64,000 nt of DNA from Escherichia coli (GTDB lineage Bacteria; Pseudomonadota; Gammaproteobacteria; Enterobacterales; Enterobacteriaceae), in the NCBI RefSeq assembly GCF_044324785.1, contig NZ_CP172127.1, one strand, 5' to 3'. The notes beneath the pieces were generated by a model, which saw only the letters and a list, made by a program, of their open reading frames with translations, was not told where the DNA came from and searched no databases. Position numbers and translations under genes: made by a program. Each line of letters opens with the position of its first letter. The stretch's first letter is position 1. Of this stretch, positions 29,941-63,920 are shown one piece after another.

Positions 29941-29952
29941 TACTTCTCCTTT

Positions 29953-31173: not shown

Positions 31174-31524
31174 ATGCACTCCTGCTAACTTCTTATCGTT
31201 TTAACAACTGCTGTGTATTAACCGCATGACCGCTACAAAGCGTCAGCCAAATGAAACCGCCCATTGTGACCCATAGCAAGGCGCTTAGTTCGCCAGCCTT
31301 GCCATAAGAATTGTTTCGACGGATTTCACAAACCAAAGATTGTTTACATAAGCGGATTAACACGCGCAGGATCACAAATGCAGGCATTGGTGAGCAGGAA
31401 AAAGATCGTGTTTACGCGCCGTTACGTTTTTAACACTATTATTGCACTAATTCGCCCTTTGCAATCCATCAATGAGTAGTATAAATACGCTCAGTTACCT
31501 TCATTCAATCTATGGACACCACCG

Positions 31525-32682: not shown

Positions 32683-33365
<683 letters not shown>

Positions 33366-33379
33366 AACCTATTTCTTCA

Positions 33380-36301
<2,922 letters not shown>

Positions 36302-36452
36302 TTGTCATCCCTCCTCAGGGACGTAATAAGTTGATCCATCAATTATCAATGCATAGAAAACATATTATGTTTCGCGTTGACGATTATGCGGCGTTATAGA
36401 GGAATGGTTCAATTATTCTTTCCCCTAAGTCCGATTGCGGACATATATAAAG

Positions 36453-37647
<1,195 letters not shown>

Positions 37648-38025
37648 AAAGCACGTGAACACACACACAGAAAGAAATAACAAAAACACAATATTTCAAT
37701 ACGTTAATGAAAGCGTTAATTTTAAAACATAGACCATGAAAATATAAAACAACCATAACAGACAAATAATGTATCAATAAGCAATGAACTTTAAGTTATT
37801 CACTTTTTGAAAACGTCACCAAATCCCCAAAAACAATAATCTATGGCTATAAATAAAAATTAAAAATATTTTCAATGAATATAAATTTATTGCTATTTCT
37901 ATTACAAAGATGTCCTGGCCTCTCTTTCATTCTCTTCTTGTCAACATCGCGACAACTTTCGTAAAACATCCCCACCCTGCTTCAGGTATACTATGCCCCT
38001 CGATTCCACAAACATCAGGCAGACC

Positions 38026-39000
38026 ATGACAGACTTAATCCAACGCCCTCGTCGCCTGCGCAAATCTCCTGCGCTGCGCGCTATGTTTGAAGAGACAACA
38101 CTTAGCCTTAACGACCTGGTGTTGCCGATCTTTGTTGAAGAAGAAATTGACGACTACAAAGCCGTTGAAGCCATGCCAGGCGTGATGCGCATTCCTGAGA
38201 AACATCTGGCACGCGAAATTGAACGCATCGCCAACGCCGGTATTCGTTCCGTGATGACTTTCGGCATCTCTCACCATACCGATGAAACCGGCAGCGACGC
38301 CTGGCGGGAAGATGGACTGGTGGCGCGTATGTCGCGCATCTGCAAGCAGACTGTGCCAGAAATGATCGTCATGTCAGACACTTGTTTCTGTGAATACACT
38401 TCTCACGGTCACTGCGGTGTGCTGTGCGAGCATGGCGTCGACAACGACGCGACTCTGGAAAATTTAGGCAAGCAAGCCGTGGTTGCAGCTGCTGCAGGCG
38501 CAGACTTCATCGCCCCTTCCGCCGCGATGGACGGCCAGGTACAGGCAATTCGCCAGGCGCTGGACGCTGCGGGCTTTAAAGACACGGCGATTATGTCGTA
38601 TTCGACCAAGTTCGCCTCCTCCTTTTATGGCCCGTTCCGTGAAGCTGCCGGCAGCGCATTAAAAGGCGACCGCAAAAGCTATCAGATGAACCCAATGAAC
38701 CGTCGTGAGGCGATTCGTGAGTCACTGCTGGATGAAGCCCAGGGCGCAGACTGCCTGATGGTTAAACCTGCTGGAGCGTACCTCGACATCGTGCGTGAGC
38801 TGCGTGAACGTACTGAATTGCCGATTGGCGCGTATCAGGTGAGCGGTGAGTACGCGATGATTAAGTTCGCCGCGCTGGCGGGTGCTATAGATGAAGAGAA
38901 AGTCGTGCTCGAAAGCTTAGGTTCGATTAAGCGTGCGGGTGCGGATCTGATTTTCAGCTACTTTGCGCTGGATTTGGCTGAGAAGAAGATTCTGCGTTAA
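38026..39000 (+). CDS. hemB: Porphobilinogen synthase (delta-aminolevulinic acid dehydratase)
   Basis: [45 protein letters not shown]... recognised as HemB; internal Met chosen to give 324 aa. Confidence 0.95.
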
Positions 39001-39039
39001 TGTTCATTATGCCGGGTTATCCAACCCGGCATTTCCCCC

Positions 39040-39891
39040 TTACCCCGCCCGATAAAACGGTTTATCCCCAAGGATCGTCGCCCGATGCATTATCCGCCGC
39101 TGTGGCAGGTAATCCGCATTGGCATAGTGCTGGGTTACGCGGTTATCCCAAATCGCAATATCATTTGGTTGCCAGCGCCAGCGCACCTGAAACTCCGGTT
39201 TGGTGATGTGGGCAAACAAAAAACCTAACAAGGCTTCGCTCTCTTTCTCGCTGACATCAACAATTCGCGTGGTAAAGCCTTCATTCACAAACAGCGCCTG
39301 TTTACCGCTCACCGGATGCGTTCGCACCACCGGATGTAGCAACGGCGGATTTTTCGCGACCGCCTCGCGCCAGCGTTGATGCTCCTCCTCCGTTTTGCGG
39401 TATTTGTATTCCGGGAACGATTTACGGAAATCATGCTCCGCACGCAGCCCGCTCAACAGCTGGCGGAAGGGAACAGAGAGCGCCTCATAGGCCGCAATGC
39501 CGCTGGTCCAGAGCGTATCGCCGCCGGTTGAGGGTAACTCTTTCGCCGCCAGAATCGCCCCAGCAGGAGGCGTTTCAATAAATGTCACATCGGTATGCCA
39601 GTTGTCGTTATCCGGCGGATTATCGTTATGAGTATCCAGTACGATAATCTCGTCAACCCCTTCGGCATGAGGGTAAACAGGATGAATATGCAGTTCGCCA
39701 AAACGTTGGGCCAGCGCGCGTTGCTGCTGCGGCGTAATGGCCTGTTCACGCAGAAACACCACCTGATGGCGCAGTACCGCATGGTAAAGCTGTTCAAACT
39801 GGTTATCACTTAACGGGCGCGTCAGGTCAGCACCCGTAATTTGTGCGCCAATATACGGCCCCAGCGGGGTAATGCTCAGACGTTCACTCAT
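39040..39891 (-). CDS. tauD: Taurine dioxygenase (alpha-ketoglutarate dependent)
   Basis: 283-aa [51 protein letters not shown]... recognised as TauD. Confidence 0.95.
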
Positions 39892-40715
39892 TGTACTTCT
39901 CCATGCCAGGGCGTCAGGCGGCGCTGTAACGCGCGCAGACCCAGTTCTAAAAGAAAGGCGATAATCGCAATCACCGCGATCCCCGCCAGCACCACGTCAG
40001 TCGCGAGAAATTCACCCGCTGACTGAACCATAAATCCTAAACCGCGCGTCGCGGCAATCAGCTCCGCCGCCACCAGCGTAGACCAGCCCACACCCAGACC
40101 AATACGTAATCCGGTGAGGATTTCCGGCAGCGCGCCGGGCAAAATGACAAACCACAGCACCTGCGCACGGCTGGCACCCAGAGACTGGGCGGCACGAATG
40201 CGAACCTGCTGCGCGCTTTTCACCCCCGCCAGCGCCGACATCGCCACCGGTGCAAAAATCGCTAAATAGATCAGTAAGATCTTCGAGGTTTCGCCAATAC
40301 CAAACCAGATCACCATCAGCGGCAAATAAGCCAGCGGCGGCACCGGACGATAAAGCTCGATTATCGGATCCAGAATGCCGCGCACCGTCGGGCTTAGCCC
40401 CATGGCGATCCCGACCGGAATACCGATCAACACCGCCGCGAGTAGCGCCAGCAAAATGCGCGTCAGGCTGGCGGCCAGATGCTGCCACAAGGTGGCGTCC
40501 ATAAATCCTTGAGGTCCGGCAATAGTAAGCAGTTTTGCCAGTACCTGTTGCGGCGGCGGTAAAAACAGCGGGCTAATCAGTTGCAGCGCCGCCACTGCCC
40601 ACCATACAGTGAGTAAAATCGCTAACGTGCCAATGCTTAAGGTCACCTGACGCGAGAGCGGCCAGCGCCATTTCAGCCGACGCGAATGCAGTTTTTCATT
40701 GATGAGCACACTCAT
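39888..40715 (-). CDS. tauC: Taurine ABC transporter permease
   Basis: 275-aa membrane ORF; start overlaps the tauB stop and its stop overlaps the tauD start by 4 bp each; recognised as TauC. Confidence 0.93.
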
Positions 40716-41479
40716 GAGAATGCCTCCCGTTGCTCAAATACGCGGCTTAAAACATATTCGCGCATGGCGATGAATTGTGGATCGGACTTGATGCTGCGGC
40801 TCGGTTCCCCGGCAACAAAGCGGCGGGCGAAGTTGAGCGGCAGCCGCTCCAGCACACGGCCAGGGCCGGGTGAAAGCAGAACCAGTTCGGTTGCCATAAA
40901 CACCGCTTCTTCTATATCGTGGGTAATCAACAGCACCTGCTTACCTGTCTCCTGCCAGAGTTTCAGCAGCAGAGTTTGCATCTGGTCGCGGGTGAAGGCG
41001 TCCAGCGCACCAAACGGTTCGTCGAGTAATAACAGCTGGGGATTCGCCGCCAGCGCGCGGGCAATCCCCACCCGCTGACGTTGACCGCCGGAAAGCTGCC
41101 AGATGTAGCGTTTTTCTGCCCCTTCCAGCCCCACTTTTTTCAGCATATGGTGCGCGATTTCCAGTCGCTGCATTTTCTCAACACCTGCCAGTTGCAGGCC
41201 GAACGCCACGTTGTCCCGTACATTGCGCCACGGTAGCAGCCCTTCATTCTGAAAAACTACGCCACGCTCTGCTCCCGGCCCCTCAATGCGTTTGCCCGCC
41301 AGTTGAATACTGCCGTGCTGATAAGGCACAAAACCGGCAATCAGATTCAGCAGGGTGGTTTTACCGCAGCCGGACGGCCCCAGCACCACCAGTAGCTCGC
41401 CGCTTTCCAGCGTCAGGTTGATATCTTCCAGCGCCGGTTTGCCGCCATAATCGGCATAGAGATGAGAGATTTGCAGCAT
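40712..41479 (-). CDS. tauB: Taurine ABC transporter ATP-binding protein
   Basis: 255-aa ORF with Walker A (GPSGCGKTT) and ABC signature ([15 protein letters not shown]); recognised as TauB. Confidence 0.95.
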
Positions 41480-41491
41480 CTGCGCCTCCTT

Positions 41492-42454
41492 TTATTGCAC
41501 GAAGCGCGAGGTAACGTACTGGCTGTAATCGTTCGCTACAGCCGGGACTTTGCCCTGCTCTTTCAAAAACTGCGCGGTGTCGATGATCGCTTTGTTCACC
41601 GGTCCGATCAGTTCTGCCGTTTGCTGCTGCGGCGTCAGATAGGTATTCCCCTTCACCAGCCCCGGAACGTCACCTTCAGGCACGCCGCTTAACCGCGCCA
41701 GTTTGCTGATGTTTTCAGGCTGTTTCAGCCACGCGTCTGGGTTAGCAATGTACGGTTGCTGAGCATCGATGGCGCTTTTGGCGAACGCTTTCACGACCTC
41801 TGGATGTTTCTCGGCAAAATCTTTGCGCACCACCCAGACGTCCAGTGTCGGCGCGCCCCACAGCCCGACCTGTTCAGAATCGGTCAGCACCTTGCCGTCT
41901 TTTTCCAGGGCGTTAACCGCCGGTGCCCAGACATAAGCACCATCAATGTCTCCCCGTTGCCATGCGGCGATAATCGCGGGTGGCTGCAGGTTCACTATCT
42001 CCACTTGTCCGGGTTTTATACCCCAGTGTTTCAGCGCCGCCAGCAGGCTGTAGTGGGTGGTGGAGATAAACGGTACGGCGATGCGTTTGCCAATCAGATC
42101 TTCCGGTTTGCTGATAGTTTTCTTTACCACCAGCGCTTCGGAGTTACCCAGTTTTGACGCCAGCAAGAAGACTTCAATCGGCACCTGTTGGCTGGCTGCA
42201 ACCGCTAATGGGCTGGAACCGAGGTTGCCGATTTGCACGTCGCCTGAAGCCAGCGCCCGCACGATGCTGGCTCCGCTGTCAAACTTACGCCAGTCAACGC
42301 TCGCCCCACTCTCTTTAGCAAAGGTGTTATCAGCCTGAGCCACTTTCGCCGGTTCAGCGGAGGTTTGATAGGCCACGGTGACGTTCACCGCCTGTGCCTG
42401 AAAAGCGATGAATGCCAGTGCGGCAAGAAGTGTGTTACGCGATGAAATTGCCAT
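41492..42454 (-). CDS. tauA: Taurine ABC transporter periplasmic binding protein
   Basis: MAISSRNTLLAALAFIAFQAQAVNVTVAYQTSAEPAKVAQ... recognised as TauA; internal Met chosen to give 320 aa. Confidence 0.92.
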   Translation of the reverse strand: MAISSRNTLLAALAFIAFQAQAVNVTVAYQTSAEPAKVAQADNTFAKESGASVDWRKFDSGASIVRALASGDVQIGNLGSSPLAVAASQQVPIEVFLLASKLGNSEALVVKKTISKPEDLIGKRIAVPFISTTHYSLLAALKHWGIKPGQVEIVNLQPPAIIAAWQRGDIDGAYVWAPAVNALEKDGKVLTDSEQVGLWGAPTLDVWVVRKDFAEKHPEVVKAFAKSAIDAQQPYIANPDAWLKQPENISKLARLSGVPEGDVPGLVKGNTYLTPQQQTAELIGPVNKAIIDTAQFLKEQGKVPAVANDYSQYVTSRFVQ

Positions 42455-43060
42455 GATTGTCTGCTCCCCTGTCTTGTTATAGGAGCAGTATTCAGGAATA
42501 AAAACATTCATTAAAAGAATTAGTCGTTATCGCACAGATGATTTTATTCTTAGCAAAAAAGCGGCAAAGGAAAGATTAAATATGCAATTACACCCACTCT
42601 GACAATTCAGTAAGTTACTGCACTTCATTTTATTAATGCATAAACAAGCAGATTATAATGTCTTTTATTTTATTAACAGCAATACATATAATGAAACCAT
42701 CATATTCACATCGCATATATAACTGTGTCATTCTCAATCAACCACATAATATATTCACATCATGTATATAATCCATATTTGCGCATAGAACATATTTTTA
42801 AATGTAATTAATTGACAAACTAAATCACATCTAAATACAATATATAAAACAAAATAACTATACAAACCAAACACACAAACACTTAACATATGAACTACAT
42901 AAAAGATTACGCAGTCGTATCCACGTACCTGAAAGCCCCTTATTTTTCAGCTATCAGTAATTTTTAACACTTAAATATTAGCATCTATCTGCGCCAGAGA
43001 TTACGTCTCTGCGGGCATCGTTGTGCTTGTAGTATAATAAATAAAATGGAGTGTCATTAA

Positions 43061-43732
43061 GTGGATAAGGTTTTAGATTCAGCCATCCTTTCTTCAGCAA
43101 ATAAAAGAAAGGGTATCCTTGCTATTGGCGCACATCCTGACGATATAGAATTGGGCTGTGGCGCGTCGCTCGCTCGTCTTGCAAAAAAAGGGTTCTATAT
43201 TGCAGCGGTAGTGATGACATCGGGTAATTCCGGCGTGAGTGAAATAATTAATCGACATCAGGAATCACTCGAAGCATTAAACATTTTGGGGTGTCAACAA
43301 ACTATTCATTTTAATTTTGCTGACACCCGTACTCATTTACAACTTAATGATATGATTTCCGCTCTGGAAGATGTCCTTAAAAAACAAATTCCGTCTGATG
43401 TAGAAATCATTCGTGTATACACCATGCATGATGCTGACCGCCATCAGGATCATCTTGCAGTCTATCAAGCCTCAATGGTTGCCTGTCGCGCTATTCCGCA
43501 AATTCTCGGCTATGAAACGCCAAGTACCTGGCTTTCATTTATGCCACAGGTTTTTGAATCCGTGGAAGAGGAATATTTCACCATTAAACTGGCTGCATTA
43601 AAACAGCATAAGAGCCAGGGCCATCGTGATTATATGCGCCCGGATCGCCTGCGTGCAGTTGCACAATTTCGCGGGCAACAGGTCAATAGCGATCTGGGTG
43701 AAGGCTTTGTAATTCATAAAATGATTCTTTGA
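43061..43732 (+). CDS. yaiS: PIG-L/LmbE-family N-acetylglucosaminyl deacetylase-like protein
   Basis: ORF from GTG at 43061 with GGAG 9 nt upstream; AHPDDIELGCGA motif typical of the PIG-L/LmbE deacetylase fold; recognised as YaiS-like. Exact start is uncertain. Confidence 0.8.
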   Translation: MDKVLDSAILSSANKRKGILAIGAHPDDIELGCGASLARLAKKGFYIAAVVMTSGNSGVSEIINRHQESLEALNILGCQQTIHFNFADTRTHLQLNDMISALEDVLKKQIPSDVEIIRVYTMHDADRHQDHLAVYQASMVACRAIPQILGYETPSTWLSFMPQVFESVEEEYFTIKLAALKQHKSQGHRDYMRPDRLRAVAQFRGQQVNSDLGEGFVIHKMIL

Positions 43733-43741
43733 GCAAATTGC

Positions 43742-44938
43742 ATGAAAACCTGGATATTTATCTGTATGTCCATAGCAATGTTGCTATGGTTTTTAAGTAC
43801 GCTAAAACGTAAACCCAGTCAAAAGAAAGGCTGTATTGACGCCATTATACCTGCGTATAACGAAGGCCCGTGTCTGGCACAGTCACTGGATAATCTGCTG
43901 CGTAACCCTTATTTTTGCCGGGTAATTTGCGTAAACGACGGCTCCACGGACAATACCGAATCGGTCATGGAGGAAGTCAAACGCAAATGGGGCGACCGCT
44001 TTGTTGCCGTCACGCAAAAAAATACCGGTAAAGGTGGTGCGCTGATGAATGGCCTCAATTACGCCACCTGCGACCAGGTTTTTTTAAGTGATGCCGACAC
44101 CTATGTTCCGCCCGATCAAGACGGAATGGGCTATATGCTGGCAGAAATTGAGCGCGGTGCCGATGCCGTAGGCGGCATTCCCTCTACTGCGTTGAAAGGC
44201 GCGGGTCTGTTACCACACATCCGCGCGACCGTAAAGTTGCCGATGATTGTTATGAAGCGCACGCTACAGCAGCTCGTGGGCGGCGCACCGTTTATTATCA
44301 GCGGTGCCTGCGGGATGTTCCGTACTGATGTATTGCGTAAGTTCGGTTTCTCGGATCGTACTAAAGTCGAAGACCTTGATCTCACCTGGACATTGGTGGC
44401 AAACGGCTACCGTATTCGGCAGGCGAATCGCTGCATCGTATACCCGCAGGAATGCAACAGCCCGCGTGAGGAGTGGCGTCGCTGGCGGCGTTGGATTGTG
44501 GGCTACGCGGTCTGTATGCGCCTGCATAAAAGACTTTTATTTAGCCGCTTCGGTATCTTCAGTATATTTCCTATGCTGTTGGTTGTGCTTTATGGCGTTG
44601 GGATTTATCTCACTACCTGGTTTAATGAATTCATCACCACCGGGCCGCATGGTGTGGTGTTGGCAATGTTTCCGCTTATCTGGGTCGGCGTAGTTTGTGT
44701 TATTGGTGCTTTTAGCGCCTGGTTTCATCGTTGCTGGTTGTTGGTGCCTTTAGCGCCGCTTTCCGTTGTGTATGTATTATTAGCTTATGCCATCTGGATT
44801 ATTTATGGACTTATTGCCTTTTTTACTGGACGCGAACCTCAGCGCGACAAACCCACCCGCTATTCCGCACTGGTGGAAGCGTCAACCGCTTATTCCCAAC
44901 CTTCTGCTACAGGAACTGAAAAACTATCTGAAGCTTAA
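43742..44938 (+). CDS. yaiP: Family 2 glycosyltransferase with C-terminal transmembrane segments
   Basis: 398-aa ORF; GT2-like N-terminal domain (AIIPAYNEG, VICVNDGSTDNT, LSDADT) followed by hydrophobic helices; recognised as YaiP-like. Confidence 0.85.
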   Translation: MKTWIFICMSIAMLLWFLSTLKRKPSQKKGCIDAIIPAYNEGPCLAQSLDNLLRNPYFCRVICVNDGSTDNTESVMEEVKRKWGDRFVAVTQKNTGKGGALMNGLNYATCDQVFLSDADTYVPPDQDGMGYMLAEIERGADAVGGIPSTALKGAGLLPHIRATVKLPMIVMKRTLQQLVGGAPFIISGACGMFRTDVLRKFGFSDRTKVEDLDLTWTLVANGYRIRQANRCIVYPQECNSPREEWRRWRRWIVGYAVCMRLHKRLLFSRFGIFSIFPMLLVVLYGVGIYLTTWFNEFITTGPHGVVLAMFPLIWVGVVCVIGAFSAWFHRCWLLVPLAPLSVVYVLLAYAIWIIYGLIAFFTGREPQRDKPTRYSALVEASTAYSQPSATGTEKLSEA

Positions 44939-45497
44939 TGTTAAAGAGAAAAACATTCAGATTGCAGACCAGGTAATTATTGATGAAACTGCAGGTGAAG
45001 TTGTTATCGGCGCGAATACCCGTATTTGTCATGGTGCCGTTATTCAGGGTCCGGTAGTGATTGGCGCAAACTGCCTGATAGGTAATTATGCGTTTATTCG
45101 TCCTGACACAATAATCAGCAATGGCGTAAAAATTGGTTTTGCCACCGAAATTAAAAATGCGGTTATTGAAGCGGAATCAACGATTGGTCCGCAATGTTTT
45201 ATTGCTGACTCGGTAGTTGCAAACCAGGCATATTTGGGCGCACAAGTACGTACCAGTAATCATCGTCTGGATGAACAGCCTGTGTCTGTTCGAACTCCAG
45301 AGGGAATTATCGCTACCGGATGCGATAAATTAGGTTGTTATATCGGGCAGCATTCACGCCTTGGCGTACAAGTTATTATTTTGCCCGGGCGAATTATTTC
45401 CCCGAACACGCAACTTGGCCCACGCGTGATTGTAGAACGTAATTTACCTCCCGGAACTTATTCACTCCGACAAGAACTTATCCGTACAGGAGATTAA
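44787..45497 (+). CDS. yaiX: Hexapeptide-repeat (left-handed beta-helix) acyltransferase, apparently intact
   Basis: 236-aa ORF with repeated [LIV]-G-x-x-x-x hexapeptides (VIGANTRICHGAVIQGPVVIGANCLIGNYAFIRPDT...). The only in-frame ATG starts (44787, 44805) lie inside the 3' end of yaiP, so the true start is uncertain. Confidence 0.7.
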   Translation: MPSGLFMDLLPFLLDANLSATNPPAIPHWWKRQPLIPNLLLQELKNYLKLNVKEKNIQIADQVIIDETAGEVVIGANTRICHGAVIQGPVVIGANCLIGNYAFIRPDTIISNGVKIGFATEIKNAVIEAESTIGPQCFIADSVVANQAYLGAQVRTSNHRLDEQPVSVRTPEGIIATGCDKLGCYIGQHSRLGVQVIILPGRIISPNTQLGPRVIVERNLPPGTYSLRQELIRTGD

Positions 45498-45498
45498 A

Positions 45499-46272
45499 AT
45501 GATAAAACGGACGTTATTAGCGGCGGTCATTTTTAGCGCATTGCCCGCTTATGCCGGGTTAACTTCCATTACCGCGGGCTACGATTTCACCGATTATTCT
45601 GGCGATCATGGCAACCGTAATTTAGCGTATGCTGAACTGGTGGCGAAAGTTGAAAACGCAACGCTGCTTTTTAATCTTTCCCAGGGGCGTCGTGATTATG
45701 AAACTGAACATTTCAATGCCACTCGCGGTCAGGGTGCGGTCTGGTATAAATGGAATAACTGGCTGACAACCCGAACGGGTATTGCCTTTGCGGATAATAC
45801 GCCGGTCTTTGCCCGCCAGGATTTTCGTCAGGATATTAACCTGGCACTGTTGCCAAAAACGCTTTTCACGACCGGTTATCGCTACACGAAATATTACGAT
45901 GATGTCGAAGTCGATGCCTGGCAAGGCGGCGTATCACTCTATACTGGCCCGGTGATCACCAGCTATCGCTATACCCATTATGACTCCAGCGATGCAGGTG
46001 GTAGTTACAGCAATATGATTTCCGTGCGTCTGAATGACCCCCGCGGCACTGGTTATACTCAACTATGGCTAAGCCGCGGCACAGGTGCTTACACCTATGA
46101 CTGGACGCCAGAAACACGCTACGGCAGCATGAAGAGCGTCAGTTTGCAACGTATTCAACCGCTGACTGAGCAACTTAATCTCGGGCTGACGGCAGGTAAA
46201 GTGTGGTACGACACCCCAACCGATGATTATAACGGTCTGCAACTTGCAGCCCATCTGACCTGGAAATTCTGA
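45499..46272 (+). CDS. yaiO: Outer-membrane beta-barrel protein YaiO
   Basis: 257-aa ORF MIKRTLLAAVIFSALPAYAGLTSITAGYDFTDYSGDHGNRNLAYAEL... with signal peptide and C-terminal Phe; recognised as YaiO. Confidence 0.9.
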   Translation: MIKRTLLAAVIFSALPAYAGLTSITAGYDFTDYSGDHGNRNLAYAELVAKVENATLLFNLSQGRRDYETEHFNATRGQGAVWYKWNNWLTTRTGIAFADNTPVFARQDFRQDINLALLPKTLFTTGYRYTKYYDDVEVDAWQGGVSLYTGPVITSYRYTHYDSSDAGGSYSNMISVRLNDPRGTGYTQLWLSRGTGAYTYDWTPETRYGSMKSVSLQRIQPLTEQLNLGLTAGKVWYDTPTDDYNGLQLAAHLTWKF

Positions 46273-46384
46273 TTCCTTCTGCCGCCCGCTATCCGGGGCG
46301 GCCTTCCCTGCCGATTAGCCCCACCACCTTTCCTCTTTGTTTTCCGACCACATTCACCGGATAAATTTTATTCTCCAGTGTTAT

Positions 46385-46435
46385 ATACTATAGGGGGGTA
46401 TGCATTGACATATAGAATACCCCCCCTATAGTATA
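46385..46435. promoter_or_regulatory. frmRAB promoter-operator: inverted repeat with G6/C7 tracts flanking a TTGACA -35-like hexamer (FrmR operator)
   Basis: ATACTATAGGGGGGTAT (46385-46401) and ATACCCCCCCTATAGTAT (46417-46434) are near-perfect inverted repeats separated by gcattgacatataga, 26 bp upstream of the frmR start. Confidence 0.75.
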
Positions 46436-46460
46436 TTGCATGCAGATGATGAGGTGCGAA

Positions 46461-46736
46461 ATGCCCAGTACTCCGGAAGAGAAGAAAAAGGTCCTTACTC
46501 GAGTTCGTCGTATTCGGGGGCAGATTGATGCTCTGGAACGGTCGCTGGAGGGTGATGCCGAATGCCGTGCCATACTCCAACAGATCGCTGCCGTTCGGGG
46601 CGCGGCTAACGGGCTGATGGCAGAAGTGCTTGAAAGCCATATCCGGGAAACGTTTGACCGAAATGACTGCTACAGCCGCGAAGTCAGCCAATCCGTTGAC
46701 GACACTATTGAACTGGTTCGTGCCTATCTTAAATAG
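46461..46736 (+). CDS. frmR: Formaldehyde-responsive repressor FrmR (CsoR/RcnR family)
   Basis: [65 protein letters not shown]... recognised as FrmR (91 aa). Confidence 0.93.
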
Positions 46737-46740
46737 CTGA

Positions 46741-47880
<1,140 letters not shown>

Positions 47881-47971
47881 TTTCCCGCAGGTTTACCCGT
47901 CCAGTTCAGACGGGGTTCTTAATACTCTCCCCGGGCAGCCGTCCGGGGGATTAACCGTGAGATAATGACTG

Positions 47972-48805
47972 ATGGAACTCATTGAAAAACATGCCAGCTT
48001 TGGCGGCTGGCAAAATGTGTATCGGCATTATTCCCAATCACTGAATTGTGAAATGAATGTCGGCGTCTATCTCCCACCAAAAGCCGCGAATGAAAAATTG
48101 CCGGTACTGTACTGGCTTTCGGGCCTGACCTGTAACGAGCAGAATTTCATTACTAAATCGGGGATGCAGCGTTACGCGGCTGAGCACAACATTATTGTTG
48201 TTGCGCCAGACACCAGTCCACGAGGCAGCCATGTCGCAGATGCCGACCGTTACGATCTCGGGCAAGGTGCCGGGTTTTACCTGAACGCAACGCAAGCGCC
48301 GTGGAATGAACATTACAAAATGTATGATTATATCCACAACGAGCTGCCGGATTTAGTAATGCAACATTTTCCGGCAACGACCAGAAAGTCTATCTCAGGT
48401 CATTCTATGGGTGGGCTGGGCGCGCTGGTGCTGGCGTTACGTAACCCAGATGAATATGTCAGCGTCTCGGCGTTTTCGCCCATTGTCTCCCCATCGCAAG
48501 TACCGTGGGGACAGCAAGCCTTTGCCGCATATCTTGGTGAAAATAAAGATGCCTGGTTGGATTACGATCCGGTGAGTCTTATTTCACAAGGTCAACGCGT
48601 TGCGGAAATCATGGTTGATCAGGGGTTGAGTGATGATTTTTACGCAGAACAGCTGCGGACTCCAAATCTTGAAAAGATCTGCCAGGAGATGAATATCAAG
48701 ACGTTAATCCGTTATCACGAGGGTTACGACCACAGCTATTATTTTGTCTCCAGTTTTATTGGCGAGCATATTGCCTACCACGCCAATAAACTGAATATGC
48801 GTTGA
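47972..48805 (+). CDS. frmB: S-formylglutathione hydrolase
   Basis: 277-aa ORF MELIEKHASFGGWQNVYRHYSQSLNCEMNVGVYLPPKAANEKLPVLYWLSGLTC... with GHSMGG esterase motif; recognised as FrmB. Confidence 0.95.
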   Translation: MELIEKHASFGGWQNVYRHYSQSLNCEMNVGVYLPPKAANEKLPVLYWLSGLTCNEQNFITKSGMQRYAAEHNIIVVAPDTSPRGSHVADADRYDLGQGAGFYLNATQAPWNEHYKMYDYIHNELPDLVMQHFPATTRKSISGHSMGGLGALVLALRNPDEYVSVSAFSPIVSPSQVPWGQQAFAAYLGENKDAWLDYDPVSLISQGQRVAEIMVDQGLSDDFYAEQLRTPNLEKICQEMNIKTLIRYHEGYDHSYYFVSSFIGEHIAYHANKLNMR

Positions 48806-48818
48806 TAATAGTGCACGG

Positions 48819-48920
48819 CTGCCGGATGCGGCGTGAACGCCTTATCCGCCTACATTTCGCCCGCAGGCCGTAGGCATGATAAGACGCGGCAGCGTCGTAT
48901 CAGGCATCTGCGCACGACTT
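48819..48920. repeat. REP/BIME element between frmB and yaiL
   Basis: gccggatgcggcgtgaacgccttatccgcctac ... gcctgatacgacgctgccgcgtcttatcatgcctac-type units readable on either strand. Confidence 0.7.
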
Positions 48921-48928
48921 ATCTATGT

Positions 48929-49468
48929 TTACCACATCAAATCATCAGGCACTTTGAAGTCGGCATACGGATCGTCTTCATCCTGCTCTTCGGCACTGAG
49001 CGCGCTGTGCAACACAATACTGCTGGCATCACGCTGAGCAATTTTATCGGCAACGCTGGCAGGAATAATGGCGTATTCACCTTCGCTATTGTTATCGACC
49101 AACAAGCGGGCAATCGCCAGACGACCATTAATCAACTGCGCTTGCGTGAGCTTATCGACAAAGATTTTCTTAATCAGATTACCGTCAGTGAAGTTAAAAC
49201 CAATATCGCCATTAGCAATGGTGATTCGGTTCATTTCAATGAGCTGCTTCACCTGAGCTTTATATTCTTTCGCCAACGCCGCTTGTTTTTGCTGCTCGCT
49301 AAGCTGTTTATCACGTTCAAGCTGTGCCTTTTTATTTTCTTCTACCGCCGCCCGAGCTTCACGCGCCTGAACGCGCGATTTTTTCGCCGTTCTCTCGACC
49401 TTCGCCGCTTTTTTGCTGGTGACTAATCCTGCTTTGAGCAACTGCTCTTGTAAGGTAAGTTTTGCCAT
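48929..49468 (-). CDS. yaiL: DUF2058-family nucleoprotein/polynucleotide-associated protein YaiL
   Basis: MAKLTLQEQLLKAGLVTSKKAAKVERTAKKSRVQAREARAAVEENKK... recognised as YaiL; internal Met chosen to give 179 aa. Confidence 0.88.
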   Translation of the reverse strand: MAKLTLQEQLLKAGLVTSKKAAKVERTAKKSRVQAREARAAVEENKKAQLERDKQLSEQQKQAALAKEYKAQVKQLIEMNRITIANGDIGFNFTDGNLIKKIFVDKLTQAQLINGRLAIARLLVDNNSEGEYAIIPASVADKIAQRDASSIVLHSALSAEEQDEDDPYADFKVPDDLMW

Positions 49469-49569
49469 CTTTGTTTCCAAACCCGCTGAATAATTTTTAG
49501 CGAGTATACCTGTAAACGCCGTAGGTGTATTGGGGGCAAGTCCCTTTCGCCCCTACTTAATAAGGCGCG

Positions 49570-50781
49570 TCAGGCATCGGCGCACGGCTGCATTCGTGAT
49601 CTCCGGCTCATCAAAATAAACACCGCCAACCCCGCAACAAGAATACCCGGCGCAGAAGCGGCCATTACGCCAACTGTGCCAGTACCTAATGCCAGCATTT
49701 TCCCGGCCAGTAACGGACCGCTCATAGCCCCCAGACGCCCTACCGCCACGGCTGTTCCCACACCTGTTGCGCGAATCTGCGAACTGTAAAACAACGGTGC
49801 CAGGGCATACAAAACGCTTTGCCCACCTGTCGCAAACAACCCCGCGACGAATCCCGCCAGCAACATACCGTTAAATGACGACACCGTTCCCAGCGCCAGC
49901 AGCGAAGCTAACATGCCGCTATAAATCAGTAGCGACATGGTTACTGGACGCAGCTTATCCATCAATGCGCCCAACATTAACGTCCCGCTTGCCGCACCCA
50001 TTTGCAGTGCAAACATCACCCCTGCCGCCTGCGATGGCTGGAATCCTTGCTCCACCAAAAGCAGCGGTAGCCAGTTGATCAACATGTAGACCACCAGCAG
50101 AGTGAAGAAATAACACAACCACAGCAGCAGCGTCGCGGTTGCCGTTTCTGGCGCAAATAACGCACGCAGTGGTGGCGCAGCCTGTTTTTCGCCAGCGAAA
50201 ACCGCCGACTCCGGCAGCCAGCGCATTAATAGCGGCACCAGAATCAACGGCACCACACCACCTACCCAAAACACCGTTTGCCATGCTAAGTTTGCCCCCG
50301 CGAAACCCAGCGTCGCCGCCAGCGCCGCGCCAATGGGGACACCGCAATACATCAGGCTCACTGCCGTCCCACGAAAACGTGGCCCCGCGGCTTCAGACGT
50401 CAGGGCGATCAGATTCGGCAACGCCGCCCCCAGCCCGACACCGGTCATCAGCCGCGCAAAGACCAGCGAGGGAAAATCCCAGGCAATCGCCGTTGCCAGT
50501 GAGAACAAACCAAACAGCGCAACTGAGCCAATCAAAATTCGCTTGCGACCATAACGGTCCGCCAGCATTCCGCCAACCAACGCGCCGGGTAGCAAACCGA
50601 GTATTCCGGCGCTGAATATCCAGCCCATTTGCATTTTATCGAGTGCAAAAGCCTGGGCGATGCCACCCGCCGCAATGCCAGCCGCCTGAAGATCCAGCCC
50701 TTCCATCAGAGCGACCAAAAAACAAAGCCCGATAGTCAGCATCAGGCGGGATGAAGATGATGAAGGGGTACGAGTCGACAT
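49570..50781 (-). CDS. mhpT: 3-(3-hydroxyphenyl)propionate transporter (MFS)
   Basis: MSTRTPSSSSSRLMLTIGLCFLVALMEGLDLQAAGIAAGG... recognised as MhpT; internal Met chosen to give 403 aa. Confidence 0.9.
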   Translation of the reverse strand: MSTRTPSSSSSRLMLTIGLCFLVALMEGLDLQAAGIAAGGIAQAFALDKMQMGWIFSAGILGLLPGALVGGMLADRYGRKRILIGSVALFGLFSLATAIAWDFPSLVFARLMTGVGLGAALPNLIALTSEAAGPRFRGTAVSLMYCGVPIGAALAATLGFAGANLAWQTVFWVGGVVPLILVPLLMRWLPESAVFAGEKQAAPPLRALFAPETATATLLLWLCYFFTLLVVYMLINWLPLLLVEQGFQPSQAAGVMFALQMGAASGTLMLGALMDKLRPVTMSLLIYSGMLASLLALGTVSSFNGMLLAGFVAGLFATGGQSVLYALAPLFYSSQIRATGVGTAVAVGRLGAMSGPLLAGKMLALGTGTVGVMAASAPGILVAGLAVFILMSRRSRMQPCADA

Positions 50782-50873
50782 AAGATGAACCTCGTTGCGA
50801 GTGCAGGTGAATCGCGACTGATACATTGCCAGCCACGTAATCAGAACCATTTAATGACTGCCTACGGGCGAAA

Positions 50874-50911
50874 TGTAGGCCGGACAAGACGTTTACGCCG
50901 CATCCGGCAGT
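50874..50911. repeat. REP element between mhpE and mhpT
   Basis: gtaggccggacaagacgtttacgccgcatccggcag. Confidence 0.65.
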
Positions 50912-50956
50912 CGTGTTGGGATGGGCATACAAAATGCACGTTCTCGGCAGTCATCA

Positions 50957-51966
50957 TTATTTGTTGTTGCGCAGATCCAGCGCCACGTCGACGATCATAT
51001 CCTCCTGGCCGCCAACCATCCGGCGTTTGCCCAGCTCAACGAGAATATCCACCGCGCTTAAGCCATAACGCGCCGCCGCCGTTTCACAGTGACGCAGGAA
51101 GCTCGAGTAAACACCAGCGTATCCCAGCGCCAGCGTTTCGCGATCGACTCGTACCGGTCGATCCTGCAACGGACGCACCAGGTCGTCAGCGGCATCCATT
51201 AACGCATAGAGATCGGTCCCATGCTGCCAACCCAGTTTATCCGCGGCGGCAATAAACACTTCCAGCGGCGCGTTACCTGCGCCCGCGCCCATTCCCGCGA
51301 GACTGGCATCGATTCGGTCGCAGCCCTCTTCCACCGCCGCGATAGAGTTCGCCACGCCAAGACTCAGGTTATGGTGAGCGTGCATGCCGGTTTGCGTTTC
51401 TGGTTTCAGCACTGCTTTCAGAGCGCGGAAACGGTCACGGATATCGCTCATGTTCATCGCACCGCCAGAATCCACCACATAAATACAGGTCGCACCGTAG
51501 CCTTCCATCAGCTTTGCCTGCTTTGCGAGATTCTCCGGCGTGGTCATATGGCTCATCATCAGAAAACCAACGGTGTCCATTCCGAGCTCGCGGGCATACT
51601 GAATATGCTGGGCGGAAACATCGGCTTCGGTACAGTGCGTTGCCACACGAACCACCCGCGCGCCAGCCTGCCAGGCATTTTTCAAATCGTGAATAGTGCC
51701 GATTCCAGGCAGCAACAACGTCGCGATTTTGGCGTGCTTCACCACATCCGCCGCTGCTTCAATCCATTCAAGGTCGCTATGTGCGCCGAAACCATAGTTA
51801 AAGCTGGACCCCTGCAAACCGTCGCCATGGGCCACTTCAATCGAATCCACGCGGGCATCGTCCAGTGCTTTGGCAATCTGGCGAACGTTTTCCAGCGAAT
51901 ACTGATGACGAATGGCGTGCATACCGTCACGCAACGTGACGTCCGAGATATATAGTTTTTTACCGT

Positions 51967-51970
<4 letters not shown>
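50957..51970 (-). CDS. mhpE: 4-hydroxy-2-oxovalerate aldolase
   Basis: 337-aa [55 protein letters not shown]... recognised as MhpE. Confidence 0.95.
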
Positions 51971-53732
<1,762 letters not shown>

Positions 53733-54599
53733 TTAAGGGCGTGCGAGGAAATTCAGCACCAGTTGATTGAAAGCGTCGGCATGTTCCCACTGCGCCCAGT
53801 GACCACAGTCGCGGAAGATATGCAGTTCAGAACCGGCAATGCCGGACAGCAGACGCAGACCCGCATCCATCGGCACAAAGCGGTCGTTGCGCCCCCAGAC
53901 AATCAGGGTTTGCGCTTTGATTTCCGCCAGACGTGGGCCAAAATCCGGGAACTGTTTCGGATTGGCTTCCAGGCTCTTAACGAAGTTTTCCAGGTGATCG
54001 CGGCGCGACAGCATATTATTCAGGCGCGCTTCAAACAGGGCGTCGGTCAAATCGCTGGTATCAAAAACGAAGATATCCATCATCAGCTTCAGGTTTTCGA
54101 TAGTCGGCTGACGATAAAGCTGATTCAGTCGCTTAATACCTTCGGTTGGCATCGGCGTAAACAAACTCATGCCGCCCGTACCACCGCCCATCAGCACCAG
54201 TTTGCCGACGCGCTCCGGCCAGTTAAGGGTGAACGCCACAGAACTATGGCCGCCCATCGAGTTGCCCAGCAGGTGGATTTTGGCGATATCCAGTTGATCC
54301 ACCACGCTTTTCAGGATTCGTGCATTAAGATCCGATCGCGAACCATTATTAACGATCGAATCGCTCTTACCCCAACCCGGGCAATCCAGCAGGATCACCC
54401 GGTAGCCCGCCTCTACCAGCGGATCGATATTGCGGCTGAAGTTCGCCCAGCCAGTAGCACCCGGGCCGGAACCGTGCAGCAGGACAACGGTTTCGTCGCC
54501 TTGTCCGCAGTCATTAAAATGGATGCGCAGCGTTTTACCCGCTTCTTCTACATTCAGAAAACGGCTGGTGGCGGCTTCGGTTTGTGGCTGATAACTCAT
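53733..54599 (-). CDS. mhpC: 2-hydroxy-6-ketonona-2,4-dienedioate hydrolase (alpha/beta hydrolase)
   Basis: [51 protein letters not shown]... with GNSMGG nucleophile elbow; recognised as MhpC; start taken at MSYQ (288 aa), the track ORF has a longer upstream extension. Confidence 0.9.
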
Positions 54600-54616
54600 C
54601 ATCTTCTCCTGCATAT

Positions 54617-55561
54617 TCAGTTCTCTGTTCTGGCGCTTAACGAGCCAAATCCGGCAATCCACTCCGGGATTGGGCGGTAATAACGCCCTTCGCTACGCCA
54701 GTTGCCAAACGCAGAAATAGCGGCAAAAGCGGCGACCCAGGTTTTGATTTCATGTGTCGACTTTCCGGCAATGACGGAAAGCTCTTCGTTACTGACGGCA
54801 TCCAGTTCCTGTATGCGTCCCTGCTCCAGCAAAGTCATGAACTGGTTATCCCAAATCGGGTTGAGCGGATGCAGCGTTCTCTGATCCTCAACAAACTTCT
54901 CAGCGGCGCTAATCACCCGTTGCTGACGCAATTCGCGCTCACTGGCGGGTAAATCTTTCCCGCTCCCCAATAGACGGTCGCGCATATGGGCATCGGCTTT
55001 CGCCAGTTCTGGCACCGGCGGCTGATGGGAAAGCCCACCGGACCCAAGGAACAGCACGCGTTTATTGAGAGTGCTGGTGAAACGTCCAATGGCTTCCCCC
55101 AACATGCGGGTACGCTGGAAACCGGGCAACGGCGTGGCGACACCGTTGATGAACACAGGCAGAACCGGCACCTTATCCAGCCCACCGAGCAGGAACTCCA
55201 GCGGCTGGGCGAACCCGTGGTCCACCTGCATACAGTAAGAAACGGCAAGATCGATCCCGCTCTTCATGACGGCATGCGCACAGGCCTCCGCCAGCTCCAC
55301 AGGCACGGGCAGCTCACCTGCCGCACTGCCGAAATCACCAATTGCCGTCGCTCCAACGCCTAAACAGAACGGTGGCATCACGTCATAGAAAAAGCCGTTG
55401 TAGTGATCTGGCGCAAACAGCACCACCAGTTCAGGGGAGAAAGCCGCAATACGCTCGCGGGCGCTGGCAATCACGCCATTGACCTCATCGAGTACCTCTT
55501 GCGCCGGGTCGATATACCCCACCAACGGCGAGTGGGAAAGACAGTGAAGATAAGCGTGCAT
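54617..55561 (-). CDS. mhpB: 3-carboxyethylcatechol 2,3-dioxygenase (extradiol dioxygenase)
   Basis: 314-aa [58 protein letters not shown]... recognised as MhpB. Confidence 0.95.
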
Positions 55562-55562
55562 A

Positions 55563-57227
55563 TCAGGCTACCTTTTCGACAGAAACGTCGGCATCAGGGC
55601 GGGTCAGCGTCATTACCGACGCCAGTTTATTCAGCGTATTGCCCAGGGTTTGCGGAATGGCGGTGGCGGCAACAAAGCGATCCGGGCGCATCACCACCAG
55701 CGAAGCATTGTGTTGCGCGAACCAGCTACGCAGGCGACCTTGCGTATCGCCCACGCGTAGTACGCCGTCGTGGTTATCCTGTGCGGTATGAATTTGCACT
55801 TCCGGCACCACCTGAATGAAGCGTGTGCCCAACGCGCGCCACTGCTGGATTTGCTCGTCGCTCATCCCCCACAGTGGATTGCATCCCCAGCCAATTACCG
55901 CGAAGTTCGCGCCGATCGCGTTATCGAGCAGCGTCACGTCGCCGTTTTCCAGCGTGACTTTCGGCTGAATAAACATCTTGCCGACCGGAGAGTGCTTCGC
56001 TTCAGCCTCACGCACCAGCGCACCGCCGTAATATTGCGGCATCGGCTTGAAGCGCATTTCGAGGAAGTAGCGTTTTACTGGCGGCAGATAATTCAGCAGC
56101 CAGGAAATGCCGTCACGTAACGTACCCTGCCAGCGTTTCGGCGGAGCCAGCACGTTGCCCGCCGTCACAGACAGGTCAATCATCGCTTTGGCGTGATCGC
56201 GACGTTCTTGTTGATAGGTATCGAGCAGCGCATCGCGGGCTTTCCCCTGGATAACCAACGCCAGTTTCCATGCGAGGTTAAAGGCGTCGCGCATACCACT
56301 GTTATAGCCCTGCCCCTGCCACACCGGCATGATGTGCGCGGCATCGCCCGCCAGCAGTACGCGATCAATACGAAAACGTTGCGCCAGTCGCGCGTTGTGG
56401 GTGTAGACACGCTGGCGAATCAATTCAACATTGTCCGGATTAGGCAGCACTTTGCTTAACAGCTTGCGCATATTTTGCGGCTCACGCAGCTGTTCTTCGG
56501 TTTCTCCCGGCATCACCATAAATTCAAAGCGACGTACCGCATGAGGCAGCGCGGCAGAAACATACGGGCGCACCGGATCACAACACAAATAGATATGCGG
56601 CGTACTTAACGGATCGTTGGCGATATCTACCACAATCCACTGATTTGGCGCAGTTTTACCTTCAAACGGCACATTCAGGGTGCGACGGACAAAACTTGCC
56701 CCACCATCACAGGCCACCAGCCACTGGGCTTTGACCGTTTCCCGCTGCCCTTCTTCCGTTTTCAGGTGCAAGGTCACTTCGTCATCTTGCTGGCTGAAGG
56801 CCTCCAGCTCGCGGGAAAACAGGCAGCGCACATTCGGAAAACGCGACAATCCTTCCAGCATCACCGCATCGACCTGAGGCTGAATAAAGGCGTTACGGCG
56901 CGGCCAGCCAAATTCATCGGTCATTGGCTGAATATCAGCAAAACAGCGACCTTTTGGGGTGAGAAAACGCATCGCGTGCCACGGCGTAGTGTGCGGCAGA
57001 ACATTATCGACCAGGCCAACCGACTGCATGGTGCGCAGCGCCTCGTCATCAATACCAATCGCACGCGGGTAGTCGATCAACTTATCGAGTTTCTCCACCA
57101 CCAGCACGTCAATGCCCATCTGGCCGAGATAGTTCGCCATCATCAGCCCGACCGGACCGGCACCAGCGATCGCCACCTGAACGCTATGGTTAACAGCAGG
57201 CTGGATGTCAGGGTGTTGTATTGCCAT
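55563..57227 (-). CDS. mhpA: 3-(3-hydroxyphenyl)propionate hydroxylase (FAD monooxygenase)
   Basis: 554-aa [49 protein letters not shown]... with FAD-binding GxGxxG; recognised as MhpA. Confidence 0.95.
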
Positions 57228-57417
57228 TTCAGTACCTCACGACTCGGACAAAATGCCGTTGCGCGCACAGTACAGCGCAACTTATTTTGTTAAAAACATG
57301 TAAATGATTTTTTATTGTGCGCTCAGTATAGGAAGGGTGTTTTCGGCTACAATCAAAACATGCCCGAATGTGCACCAGGTGCACCACGTTGTTTTAACTA
57401 TAGAAATGTCAATTAAT

Positions 57418-58251
57418 ATGCAGAACAATGAGCAGACGGAATACAAAACCGTGCGCGGCTTAACCCGCGGTCTAATGTTATTAAATATGTTAAATAAACT
57501 TGACGGCGGTGCCAGCGTCGGGCTGCTGGCGGAACTCAGCGGCCTGCATCGCACCACTGTGCGGCGACTGCTGGAGACGCTGCAGGAAGAGGGATATGTC
57601 CGGCGTAGTCCCTCCGATGACAGTTTCCGTTTGACCATCAAAGTGCGGCAATTAAGCGAAGGATTTCGTGACGAACAGTGGATTTCTGCACTGGCGGCCC
57701 CGCTGCTGGGCGATCTGTTGCGCGAAGTGGTTTGGCCAACAGATGTGTCCACCCTGGATGTTGATGCAATGGTGGTACGCGAAACCACCCACCGTTTCAG
57801 CCGCTTATCCTTTCACCGGGCAATGGTCGGGCGACGGTTACCGCTTCTGAAAACCGCCTCGGGCCTGACCTGGCTGGCCTTTTGCCCGGAACAAGAACGC
57901 AAGGAATTAATCGAAATGTTAGCCACCCGTCCCGGTGATGACTATCAACTGGCACGGGAACCGTTAAAACTGGAAGCCATTCTGGCGCGGGCGCGCAAAG
58001 AGGGGTACGGACAGAACTACCGCGGCTGGGATCAAGAAGAAAAGATCGCCTCTATTGCCGTACCGCTGCGCAGTGAACAACGGGTGATTGGCTGTCTGAA
58101 TCTGGTGTATATGGCGAGCGCAATGACCATTGAACAGGCAGCGGAAAAGCATCTTCCGGCGCTACAACGGGTGGCAAAACAGATCGAAGAAGGGGTTGAA
58201 TCGCAGGCTATTCTGGTGGCCGGACGGCGAAGCGGCGTGCATTTACGTTGA
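57418..58251 (+). CDS. mhpR: Transcriptional activator of the mhp operon (IclR family)
   Basis: MQNNEQTEYKTVRGLTRGLMLLNMLNKLDGGASVGLLAELSGLHRTTVRRLLETLQEEGYV... recognised as MhpR; internal Met chosen to give 277 aa; divergent from mhpA. Confidence 0.9.
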   Translation: MQNNEQTEYKTVRGLTRGLMLLNMLNKLDGGASVGLLAELSGLHRTTVRRLLETLQEEGYVRRSPSDDSFRLTIKVRQLSEGFRDEQWISALAAPLLGDLLREVVWPTDVSTLDVDAMVVRETTHRFSRLSFHRAMVGRRLPLLKTASGLTWLAFCPEQERKELIEMLATRPGDDYQLAREPLKLEAILARARKEGYGQNYRGWDQEEKIASIAVPLRSEQRVIGCLNLVYMASAMTIEQAAEKHLPALQRVAKQIEEGVESQAILVAGRRSGVHLR

Positions 58252-58327
58252 CACCATCGAATGGCGCAAAACCTTTCGTGGTATGGCATGATAGCGCCCG
58301 GAAGAAAGTCAATTCAGGGTGGTGAAT

Positions 58328-59410: not shown

Positions 59411-59423
59411 GCGCAACGCAATT
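59403..59423. promoter_or_regulatory. lac auxiliary operator O3
   Basis: GGCAGTGAGCGCAACGCAATT overlapping the lacI stop codon. Confidence 0.85.
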
Positions 59424-59444
59424 AATGTGAGTCAGCTCACTCAT
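59423..59444. promoter_or_regulatory. CRP (CAP) binding site of the lac promoter
   Basis: TAATGTGAGTCAGCTCACTCAT; the TGTGA…TCACT half-sites are intact, and the central gtCagc differs from the gtTagc I recall for K-12. Confidence 0.9.
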
Positions 59445-59458
59445 TAGGCACCCCAGGC

Positions 59459-59488
59459 TTTACACTTTATGCGTCCGGCTCGTATGTT
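59459..59488 (+). promoter_or_regulatory. lac promoter P1 (-35 TTTACA, -10 TATGTT)
   Basis: TTTACA at 59459-59464 and TATGTT at 59483-59488 with 18-bp spacing; wild-type (not UV5) -10; the spacer carries gcGtccggctcg versus the gcTtccggctcg I recall for K-12. Confidence 0.9.
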
Positions 59489-59494
59489 GTGTGG

Positions 59495-62607
<3,113 letters not shown>

Positions 62608-62613
62608 TAATAA

Positions 62614-63912
<1,299 letters not shown>

Positions 63913-63920
63913 GCAATCAA

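Follow-up and report, generated by a model that had tools for sequence, protein, structure and literature searches.

An extra C in the known FrmR operator of Escherichia coli frmRAB: slippage allele or homopolymer error?

Introduction

In the Escherichia coli DNA analyzed here, a stretch of 64,000 nt from contig NZ_CP172127.1 (referred to below as the window), the control region of the frmRAB operon carries two homopolymer tracts of unequal length, six G on one side of the -35 element and seven C on the other. This asymmetry raises the question of whether it is the normal state of the operator, a genuine mutation within it, or a sequencing or assembly error, and what the additional base would do to regulation by FrmR.

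The FrmR operator system of frmRAB is already known. The E. coli promoter Pfrm carries an extensive inverted repeat that has its center at -29 relative to the predicted start of transcription and is built from two FrmR sites of type 1 in tandem, in each of which a 9-bp G/C-rich stretch separates the halves of an ATAC/GTAT dyad; two FrmR tetramers were proposed to bind it (Denby 2016, PMC5146963). In Salmonella, the operator was described as a C6 tract with a flanking T/A-rich inverted repeat, which is needed for tight binding, and two FrmR tetramers bind each operator DNA with a KDNA of ~1 × 10−7 M (Osman 2016, PMC5016687). The frmRA operator of Salmonella Typhimurium thus resembles that of Escherichia in its C6 run and in the two FrmR tetramers per DNA (PMC4528141, PMC5016687), whereas the Escherichia operator is described as two tandem sites. 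Length variants of the Salmonella operator are absent from the Osman 2015 and 2016 studies (PMC4528141, PMC5016687). Formaldehyde is the direct effector of FrmR (Osman 2016, PMC5016687); it cross-links Pro2 to Cys35 in the repressor, upon which the DNA is released (literature). Both DNA binding by FrmR and its release by formaldehyde were described for wild-type sequences (PMC5146963, PMC5016687).

FrmR belongs to the CsoR/RcnR (DUF156) family of repressors. For CsoR, the spacing of the TAC-X9-GTA dyad equals the width of the tetramer (Tan 2014, PMC3902906), and the tandem type-1 operator of RcnR in E. coli is given as TACT-G6-N-AGTA (Iwig & Chivers 2009, as cited in Denby 2016 and Tan 2014). 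The RcnR and CsoR sites share with those of FrmR the A-form-like G/C runs and the TAC/GTA dyads at a fixed, tetramer-wide spacing, but they serve other repressors that respond to metals instead of formaldehyde, and their flanking sequences differ.

Results

The frmRAB operon and its operator-promoter in the window

Three genes downstream of the unequal tracts make up the operon:

46461-46736, plus strand: frmR, leading gene of the operon, encoding its autoregulated repressor (FrmR equivalog model NF008464, score 189 bits, cut-off 133)
46771-47880, plus strand: frmA, S-(hydroxymethyl)glutathione dehydrogenase (open reading frame; annotation and Pfam matches in homologous genomes)
47972-48805, plus strand: frmB (fghA), S-formylglutathione hydrolase (open reading frame; PF00756 and fghA annotation)

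On the RcnR model, whose cut-off is 138 bits, the FrmR protein of the window scored only 68. Gene order in the region agrees with that of annotated genomes, in which frmR is named as such, and the upstream gene yaiO ends at 46272, before the operator.

Read directly from the sequence, the operator-promoter at 46383-46436 is ATATACTATAGGGGGG-TATGCATTGACATATAGAATA-CCCCCCCTATAGTATAT, and its elements are the following:

46383-46398, plus strand: left arm of the inverted repeat, ATATACTATAGGGGGG, complementary to 46421-46436
46421-46436, plus strand: right arm of the inverted repeat, CCCCCCTATAGTATAT (repeat search)
46385-46401, no strand assigned: distal FrmR site (site I), ATAC-TATAGGGGG-GTAT, spaced by the canonical N9 and including the G6 run (definition of Denby 2016)
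46405-46410, plus strand: -35 hexamer TTGACA (promoter scan), between the repeat arms and between both FrmR sites
46417-46434, no strand assigned: FrmR site II (promoter-proximal), ATAC-CCCCCCTATA-GTAT with N10; the wild-type ATACCCCCCTATAGTAT is N9
46420-46426, plus strand: C7 run, one C above the wild-type C6; a single C gap at 46420 against seven compared loci
46427-46432, plus strand: predicted -10 hexamer TATAGT inside site II (promoter scan and cross-species conservation)

A repeat search returned arms of 16 nt that are 100% complementary and stand 22 nt apart; the chance expectation of a perfect 16-nt inverted repeat within 221 nt is ~6 × 10−6 (~24,000 arm pairs / 4^16). The single C between TATGCATTGACATATAGAATA and CCCCCCTATAGTATAT is the base of the C run that lies outside the perfect repeat, so that a G run of six bases (46393-46398) faces a C run of seven. 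The dyad halves are located at 46385-88 (ATAC) and 46398-401 (GTAT) for site I, and at 46417-20 and 46431-34 for site II. In pattern searches of the 64-kb window, ATAC-N9-GTAT occurred a single time, at site I, and ATAC-N10-GTAT likewise once, at site II. The unequal arms therefore amount to one FrmR site, site II, with a non-canonical internal spacing.

The locus is unquestionably the frm operator, located upstream of frmR-frmA-frmB and with a 16-nt inverted repeat that brackets TTGACA, and its C7 allele is off consensus at one of the two sites, where the ATAC-N9-GTAT pattern of site I gives way to N10. Judged as type-1 sites of the CsoR/RcnR family, the runs of 6 and 7 fall within the range of 3-8, and with respect to the stated dyad distance of 6-9, site I (9 bp) is inside and site II (10 bp) just outside. 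An alternative reading of the inverted repeat as a terminator or RNA hairpin was rejected, as no terminator-like site was found and the repeat is located upstream of the predicted transcription start.

In the promoter scan, TTGACA and TATAGT are separated by a 16-nt spacer and match the consensus at 11 of 12 positions. The assignment of TATAGT as the -10 element is consistent with the repeat center at -29 from the predicted start given by Denby. An alternative -10 hexamer, TAGTAT (46429-46434), would stand at a spacer of 18 bp in the window and 17 bp in the wild type. Pfrm of K-12 (PMC5146963) is the same locus, with the same tandem ATAC/GTAT sites forming an inverted repeat around the -35 element, and the 151-nt region of the window differs from that of the K-12-derived NEB5-alpha by one base only. 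K-12 has C6, N9 at site II and a 15-bp TTGACA/TATAGT spacer, versus C7, N10 and 16 bp in the window.

A first-pass annotation of this DNA had described a frmRAB control region at 46385-46435 with an inverted repeat bracketing a -35-like TTGACA and with unequal homopolymer arms. The gene identities, the perfect 16-nt repeat and the two run lengths bear out each of these points, and the coordinates were essentially right. Its view of a single operator palindrome with two half-sites has to be replaced by two tandem ATAC-N9-GTAT type-1 sites (PMC5146963), and it had overlooked the effect of the extra base on the -35/-10 spacer. The explanations it had suggested, a change in FrmR binding or a sequencing error at the homopolymer, are the same two between which the evidence is weighed below.

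Conservation of the dyad spacing across species

We compared 80 loci with frmR homologues, from 80 species of gamma-, beta- and alphaproteobacteria. In 69 of them, TAC-N9-GTA was found within 120 nt upstream of frmR (88 sites, arranged in tandem in 19 loci), compared to three occurrences of N8 spacing and five of N10 in the 80 loci. The length of the G/C run varied from 4 to 6 bases, or the run was interrupted (e.g., GTGGAG); site II of E. albertii, for example, is ATACTCCCCTATAGTAT. Since N9 is kept in 69/80 loci while the run varies between 4 and 6, the conserved quantity is the spacing of the dyad, not the homopolymer. Three of the five N10 sites represent the distal site of one Citrobacter/Klebsiella-type frmR family, and by analogy with this family N10 may be tolerated at an FrmR site.

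TATAGT is present inside the proximal site in all enterobacterial loci, and TTGACN is kept at the -35 position in other genera. The distance between TTGACN and TATAGT is 15 bp in every Escherichia species and 17 bp elsewhere, with the exception of Erwinia (16 bp).

Separately, frmR homologues with 88-91% identity to E. coli FrmR are spread over unrelated genera, including Edwardsiella anguillarum (plasmid NZ_CP006665.1), Klebsiella grimontii, Pantoea, Providencia and Aeromonas, and at least one of them is plasmid-borne. They have tandem ATAC-N9-GTAT sites without homopolymers, and look like a mobile formaldehyde-detoxification module.

The wild-type state among E. coli

The operator element was found in 5,415 of 5,426 complete E. 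coli genomes searched with the 151-nt query. The K-12 strains MG1655, DH5alpha, NEB5-alpha and C600, and nearly all other genomes, gave a 150-nt match with one gap, i.e., G6/C6, which is the state of ~99% of the 5,415 genomes. Direct reading of NEB5-alpha, O157:H7 and ~30 diverse loci returned G6-21nt-C6 in every inspected locus except those retrieved as length variants. Internal SNPs differ between E. coli operators, while both runs and the 21-nt distance are constant. An independent set of 93 operators on metagenome contigs, mostly of Illumina type, comprised 91 with G6/C6 and two with G5/C6 (both at 1-4x coverage), and none with C7. The other Escherichia species are also G6/C6. These sequence comparisons identify symmetric G6/C6 as the canonical form of the E. 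coli operator and the C7 asymmetry as a departure from the normal state. In O157:H7 strain 611, the -35 element is TTGATA, together with C6.

According to the first-pass annotation, its reading would fail if other strains showed the same asymmetry as a conserved wild-type state, and this is not the case, given G6/C6 in K-12, in ~99% of genomes and in all near relatives. The stronger proposal that G6/C7 is a conserved, designed E. coli state that tunes FrmR binding can be set aside with near certainty: K-12, ~99% of the 5,415 genomes, 91 of the 93 metagenome contigs, the other Escherichia species and the close relatives of the window all have G6/C6, and a search for support beyond the window sequence itself found none.

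A second homopolymer of the intergenic region shows what a run free to vary looks like. Located at 46318-46328 and ~90 nt upstream of the FrmR sites, this poly-C region has the sequence GCCCCACCACC in the window, and in other E. coli it is C7, C8, C9, C10 or interrupted (CCCCACCACC, CCCCACCCCC, CCCCAACCCG). This run falls outside the FrmR sites and, on the genomes compared, is naturally hypervariable, unlike the fixed operator runs. It varies far more than they do, which indicates that the operator runs are under constraint (purifying selection).

The extra C against the closest relatives

The set of complete RefSeq genomes searched for E. coli lacks the window's own genome, and its best matches were 98.7-99.0% identical to the window. 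Exact-protein look-up retrieved four near-identical relatives (99.9-100% identity):

ENA scaffold ERZ28576316 scaffold_13
GCA_037978695.1
GCA_044695065.1
GCA_028598205.1

All four have C6 on the same window-specific upstream haplotype. The alignment with the ENA scaffold showed one mismatch and no gaps over 1-22829, 100% identity over 23392-36452, 17 mismatches and one gap, the extra C, over 37648-47501, and one mismatch plus the same gap over 45562-64000. The extra C is therefore the sole single-base indel over ~63 kb against the closest relative. All of the 69 other homopolymers of at least six bases in the window, four G/C 6-mers included, agree with the relatives. On this evidence, the extra C is derived and private to the source strain among its near relatives.

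These data bear in both directions on the most serious rival reading, namely that a homopolymer was miscounted in sequencing or assembly and that the true operator of the organism is G6/C6. As the longest G/C run in the window, C7 is its most error-prone base call, and all four relatives have C6. One of the relatives, GCA_028598205.1, illustrates such errors, with 11 gap positions in 18 kb, mostly at homopolymers; this is the pattern of an error-prone assembly, and the window is unlike it. An error would have to have struck a sequence that is otherwise indel-free over ~63 kb against the closest relative and concordant at the 69 other homopolymers of six or more bases, while leaving intact the G6 run 22 nt away, which presents the same context on the opposite strand.

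Two further differences from the relatives were noted. At 46362, between yaiO and frmR, the window has GGATAAATTTT and the ENA scaffold has GGAAAAATTTT at its position 892, a T/A SNP that is the only difference besides the extra C within 5.8 kb around frm; the K-12-derived NEB5-alpha agrees with the window. An IS5-family insertion of 1,195 bp (36453-37647; transposase open reading frame 36521-37513, NF033581, 367 bits) is located between an autotransporter gene and hemB. It is missing from all near-identical relatives and is the sole other length difference from the ENA scaffold, and its flanking alignments overlap by 4 bp, which is consistent with a target-site duplication.

Run-length variants in other genomes

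We surveyed the 5,415 complete genomes for run-length variants with synthetic G7/C7, G5/C5, C7 and C5 operators on the two main haplotypes, which gives the following lower-bound counts:

C7: at least 23 genomes (K-12-like background 3, exact GCATA/GCG core 14, one extra SNP 6)
C8: 1 genome (81EVA)
G7: 3 genomes (Nord1, A12, A35)
C5: 11 genomes (both backgrounds)
G5: at least 9 genomes (both backgrounds)

Length variants in total amount to ~0.9% of the complete genomes. C7 is present sporadically on several local haplotypes, and its carriers on the K-12-like background are ETEC1716, B-2207 and WP5-S17-ESBL-10.

Several features of this set suggest that many of the calls are technical. Variants affect both runs and go in both directions; the laboratory strain K-12 DHB4 is among them, with C5; FORC_081 combines G5 with a frmR annotated as frameshifted in the same assembly; and single projects yielded differing variants, namely C7 in ETEC1716 with G5 in ETEC1706, and G7 in A12 and A35 with C7 in A39. 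NCTC9038 is a further carrier that hints at technical noise. The scatter of plus-one and minus-one variants over ~0.9% of complete assemblies, the cases of DHB4, FORC_081 and the ETEC pair, and the metagenome contigs, on which two low-coverage G5 calls were the only variants, thus add to the case for an error in the window. An excess of C7 over G7 could have served as an argument against error, since the arms present an identical 16-nt context on opposite strands, but it was rejected: the C-run counts had used a looser 76-78-nt core, and the raw 23 versus 3 becomes 8 versus 3 in a like-for-like tally on the 151- and 152-nt backgrounds, which is not significant.

One case in favor of a genuine allele is MRE162, of which three out of three substrain assemblies (UK, FRA, NOR) have C7. 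A 20-kb comparison of MRE162 with its nearest genome, J31, returned four SNPs and a sole indel, the additional C, a pattern that matches the difference between the window and its relative. In the same two genomes, tauC is frameshifted by annotation, and since this is common to MRE162 and J31, the pseudogene is a feature of the lineage, not an assembly artefact.

A C7 clade comprising the strains MRE162, G5, X14-3 and VTB97448v, linked by the 5'-UTR SNP GATGATGAGG to GATAATGAGG, was considered and rejected, as the SNP also occurs on 14-15 metagenome contigs with C6. In the 20-kb search with MRE162, 24 genomes ranked ahead of X14-3, and none of them belonged to the C7 carriers identified. Both results indicate that C7 is sporadic and does not define a clade.

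The recurrence of length variants on many backgrounds, in a series from C5 to C8, at a base shared by an operator and a promoter spacer, where such switches are classically found, raises the idea of a contingency (phase-variation) locus that toggles frmRAB by high-frequency slippage. We consider this very improbable: runs of 6-7 nt are short for a contingency locus, the variants reach only ~0.9% and are each private to a strain, 6/6 is the fixed state in ~99% of genomes, and the upstream poly-C run (C7 to C10, or interrupted) varies far more than the operator runs, which speaks for purifying selection on the latter instead of switching.

Taken with the indel-free ~63 kb and the 69 concordant homopolymers, the reproduction of C7 in the three MRE162 assemblies and its presence elsewhere in at least 23 genomes favor a genuine slippage allele (C7) in the known FrmR operator, which we judge slightly likelier than a homopolymer error, with a probability of roughly 0.55. 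The error reading is a substantial competitor, at somewhat below even odds, and readings other than these two together retain very little weight.

Three combinations of the variants with other changes were recorded. The C8 of 81EVA (NZ_CP138397.1) brings site II to N11 and the TTGACA/TATAGT spacer to 17 bp; WP5-S17-ESBL-10 (NZ_AP022105.1) carries FrmR P5L (CCG to CTG; WP_096997743.1) besides C7; and the swine isolates PEC145 and PEC411 have C7 together with a change of the -35 element from TTGACA to the weakened form TTGAAA.

Predicted effect of the extra C on regulation

If genuine, C7 most likely arose from C6 when replication slipped in what is the region's longest G/C homopolymer. The literature shows FrmR tetramers, of which two are proposed per operator, to repress through the tandem type-1 sites; site I lies just upstream of the -35 element and site II over the -10 element. 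As read from the sequence, the extra C changes site II from N9 to N10, makes the TTGACA/TATAGT spacer 16 bp long instead of 15, and places the downstream GTAT half-site of site II one base further from site I. The first of these changes is predicted to weaken FrmR occupancy at site II, which covers the -10 element. The optimal spacing between -35 and -10 elements is 17 bp, and the C7 allele would bring the core promoter nearer to this optimum. Together, both effects would modestly raise the basal expression of frmRAB, with partial damping by autoregulation, since the operon starts with frmR. The expected gain from the longer spacer presupposes TATAGT as the -10 element; with TAGTAT in this role, the C7 allele would have 18 bp in place of 17 and a weaker promoter.

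A literature search found no paper on Pfrm run-length variants, and no experimental data on the run length or on the -10 element used; Rohlhill 2017 and Woolston 2018, which reportedly hold direct mutational data on Pfrm, lay outside this search.

Discussion

The element itself is an ordinary finding, a textbook-level and structurally characterized repressor-operator system; what sets the window apart is a rare and apparently derived insertion of one base, a minor allele if genuine, with an effect on regulation that is predicted from sequence. The useful outcome is that the canonical G6/C6 symmetry has been established and that the ATAC-N9-GTAT spacing, not the run length, is the conserved quantity across proteobacteria. 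Since ~1% of "complete" assemblies carry plus-one or minus-one variants at the frm runs, a single-base asymmetry at these runs needs read support before it is interpreted.

Loss of FrmR function is an experimentally tested route to resistance. The frmR alleles P5R, E6stop, G47S and V86D are loss-of-function alleles that confer resistance to formaldehyde and methenamine (PLoS Pathog 2026, PMC13029678), and the causes identified to date for formaldehyde resistance in the clinic are FrmR substitutions and plasmid-borne frmA, from a protein-only screen (PMC13029678). The outcome predicted for C7 would be the same as for these alleles (PMC13029678), derepression of frmRAB, but they act in trans, in the protein, whereas C7 would act in cis, in the operator.

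It is conceivable, if rather unlikely in our estimation, that slippage repeatedly generates C7 and C8 as genuine cis-derepressing alleles and that exposure to formaldehyde occasionally selects them, with methenamine therapy, formalin in farming and aquaculture, and laboratory decontamination as possible selecting exposures. Three observations hint in this direction: the series C6, C7, C8 has spacers of 15, 16 and 17 bp; the C7 strain WP5-S17-ESBL-10 has P5L at the residue of the proven P5R (PMC13029678); and TTGAAA in two C7 strains could be compensatory. If C7 and C8 are real and derepressing, they would constitute a cis-regulatory route to formaldehyde and methenamine tolerance, which current surveillance, directed at the FrmR protein and plasmid-borne frmA (PMC13029678), would miss.

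Neighboring genes

Further upstream in the window, an open reading frame at 44787-45497 (236 aa, acetyltransferase, yaiX-like) overlaps the end of yaiP (43742-44938). In relatives, the yaiX-like gene is annotated with 193 aa and starts inside the 236-aa frame; the longer frame probably reflects merely an upstream in-frame start codon.
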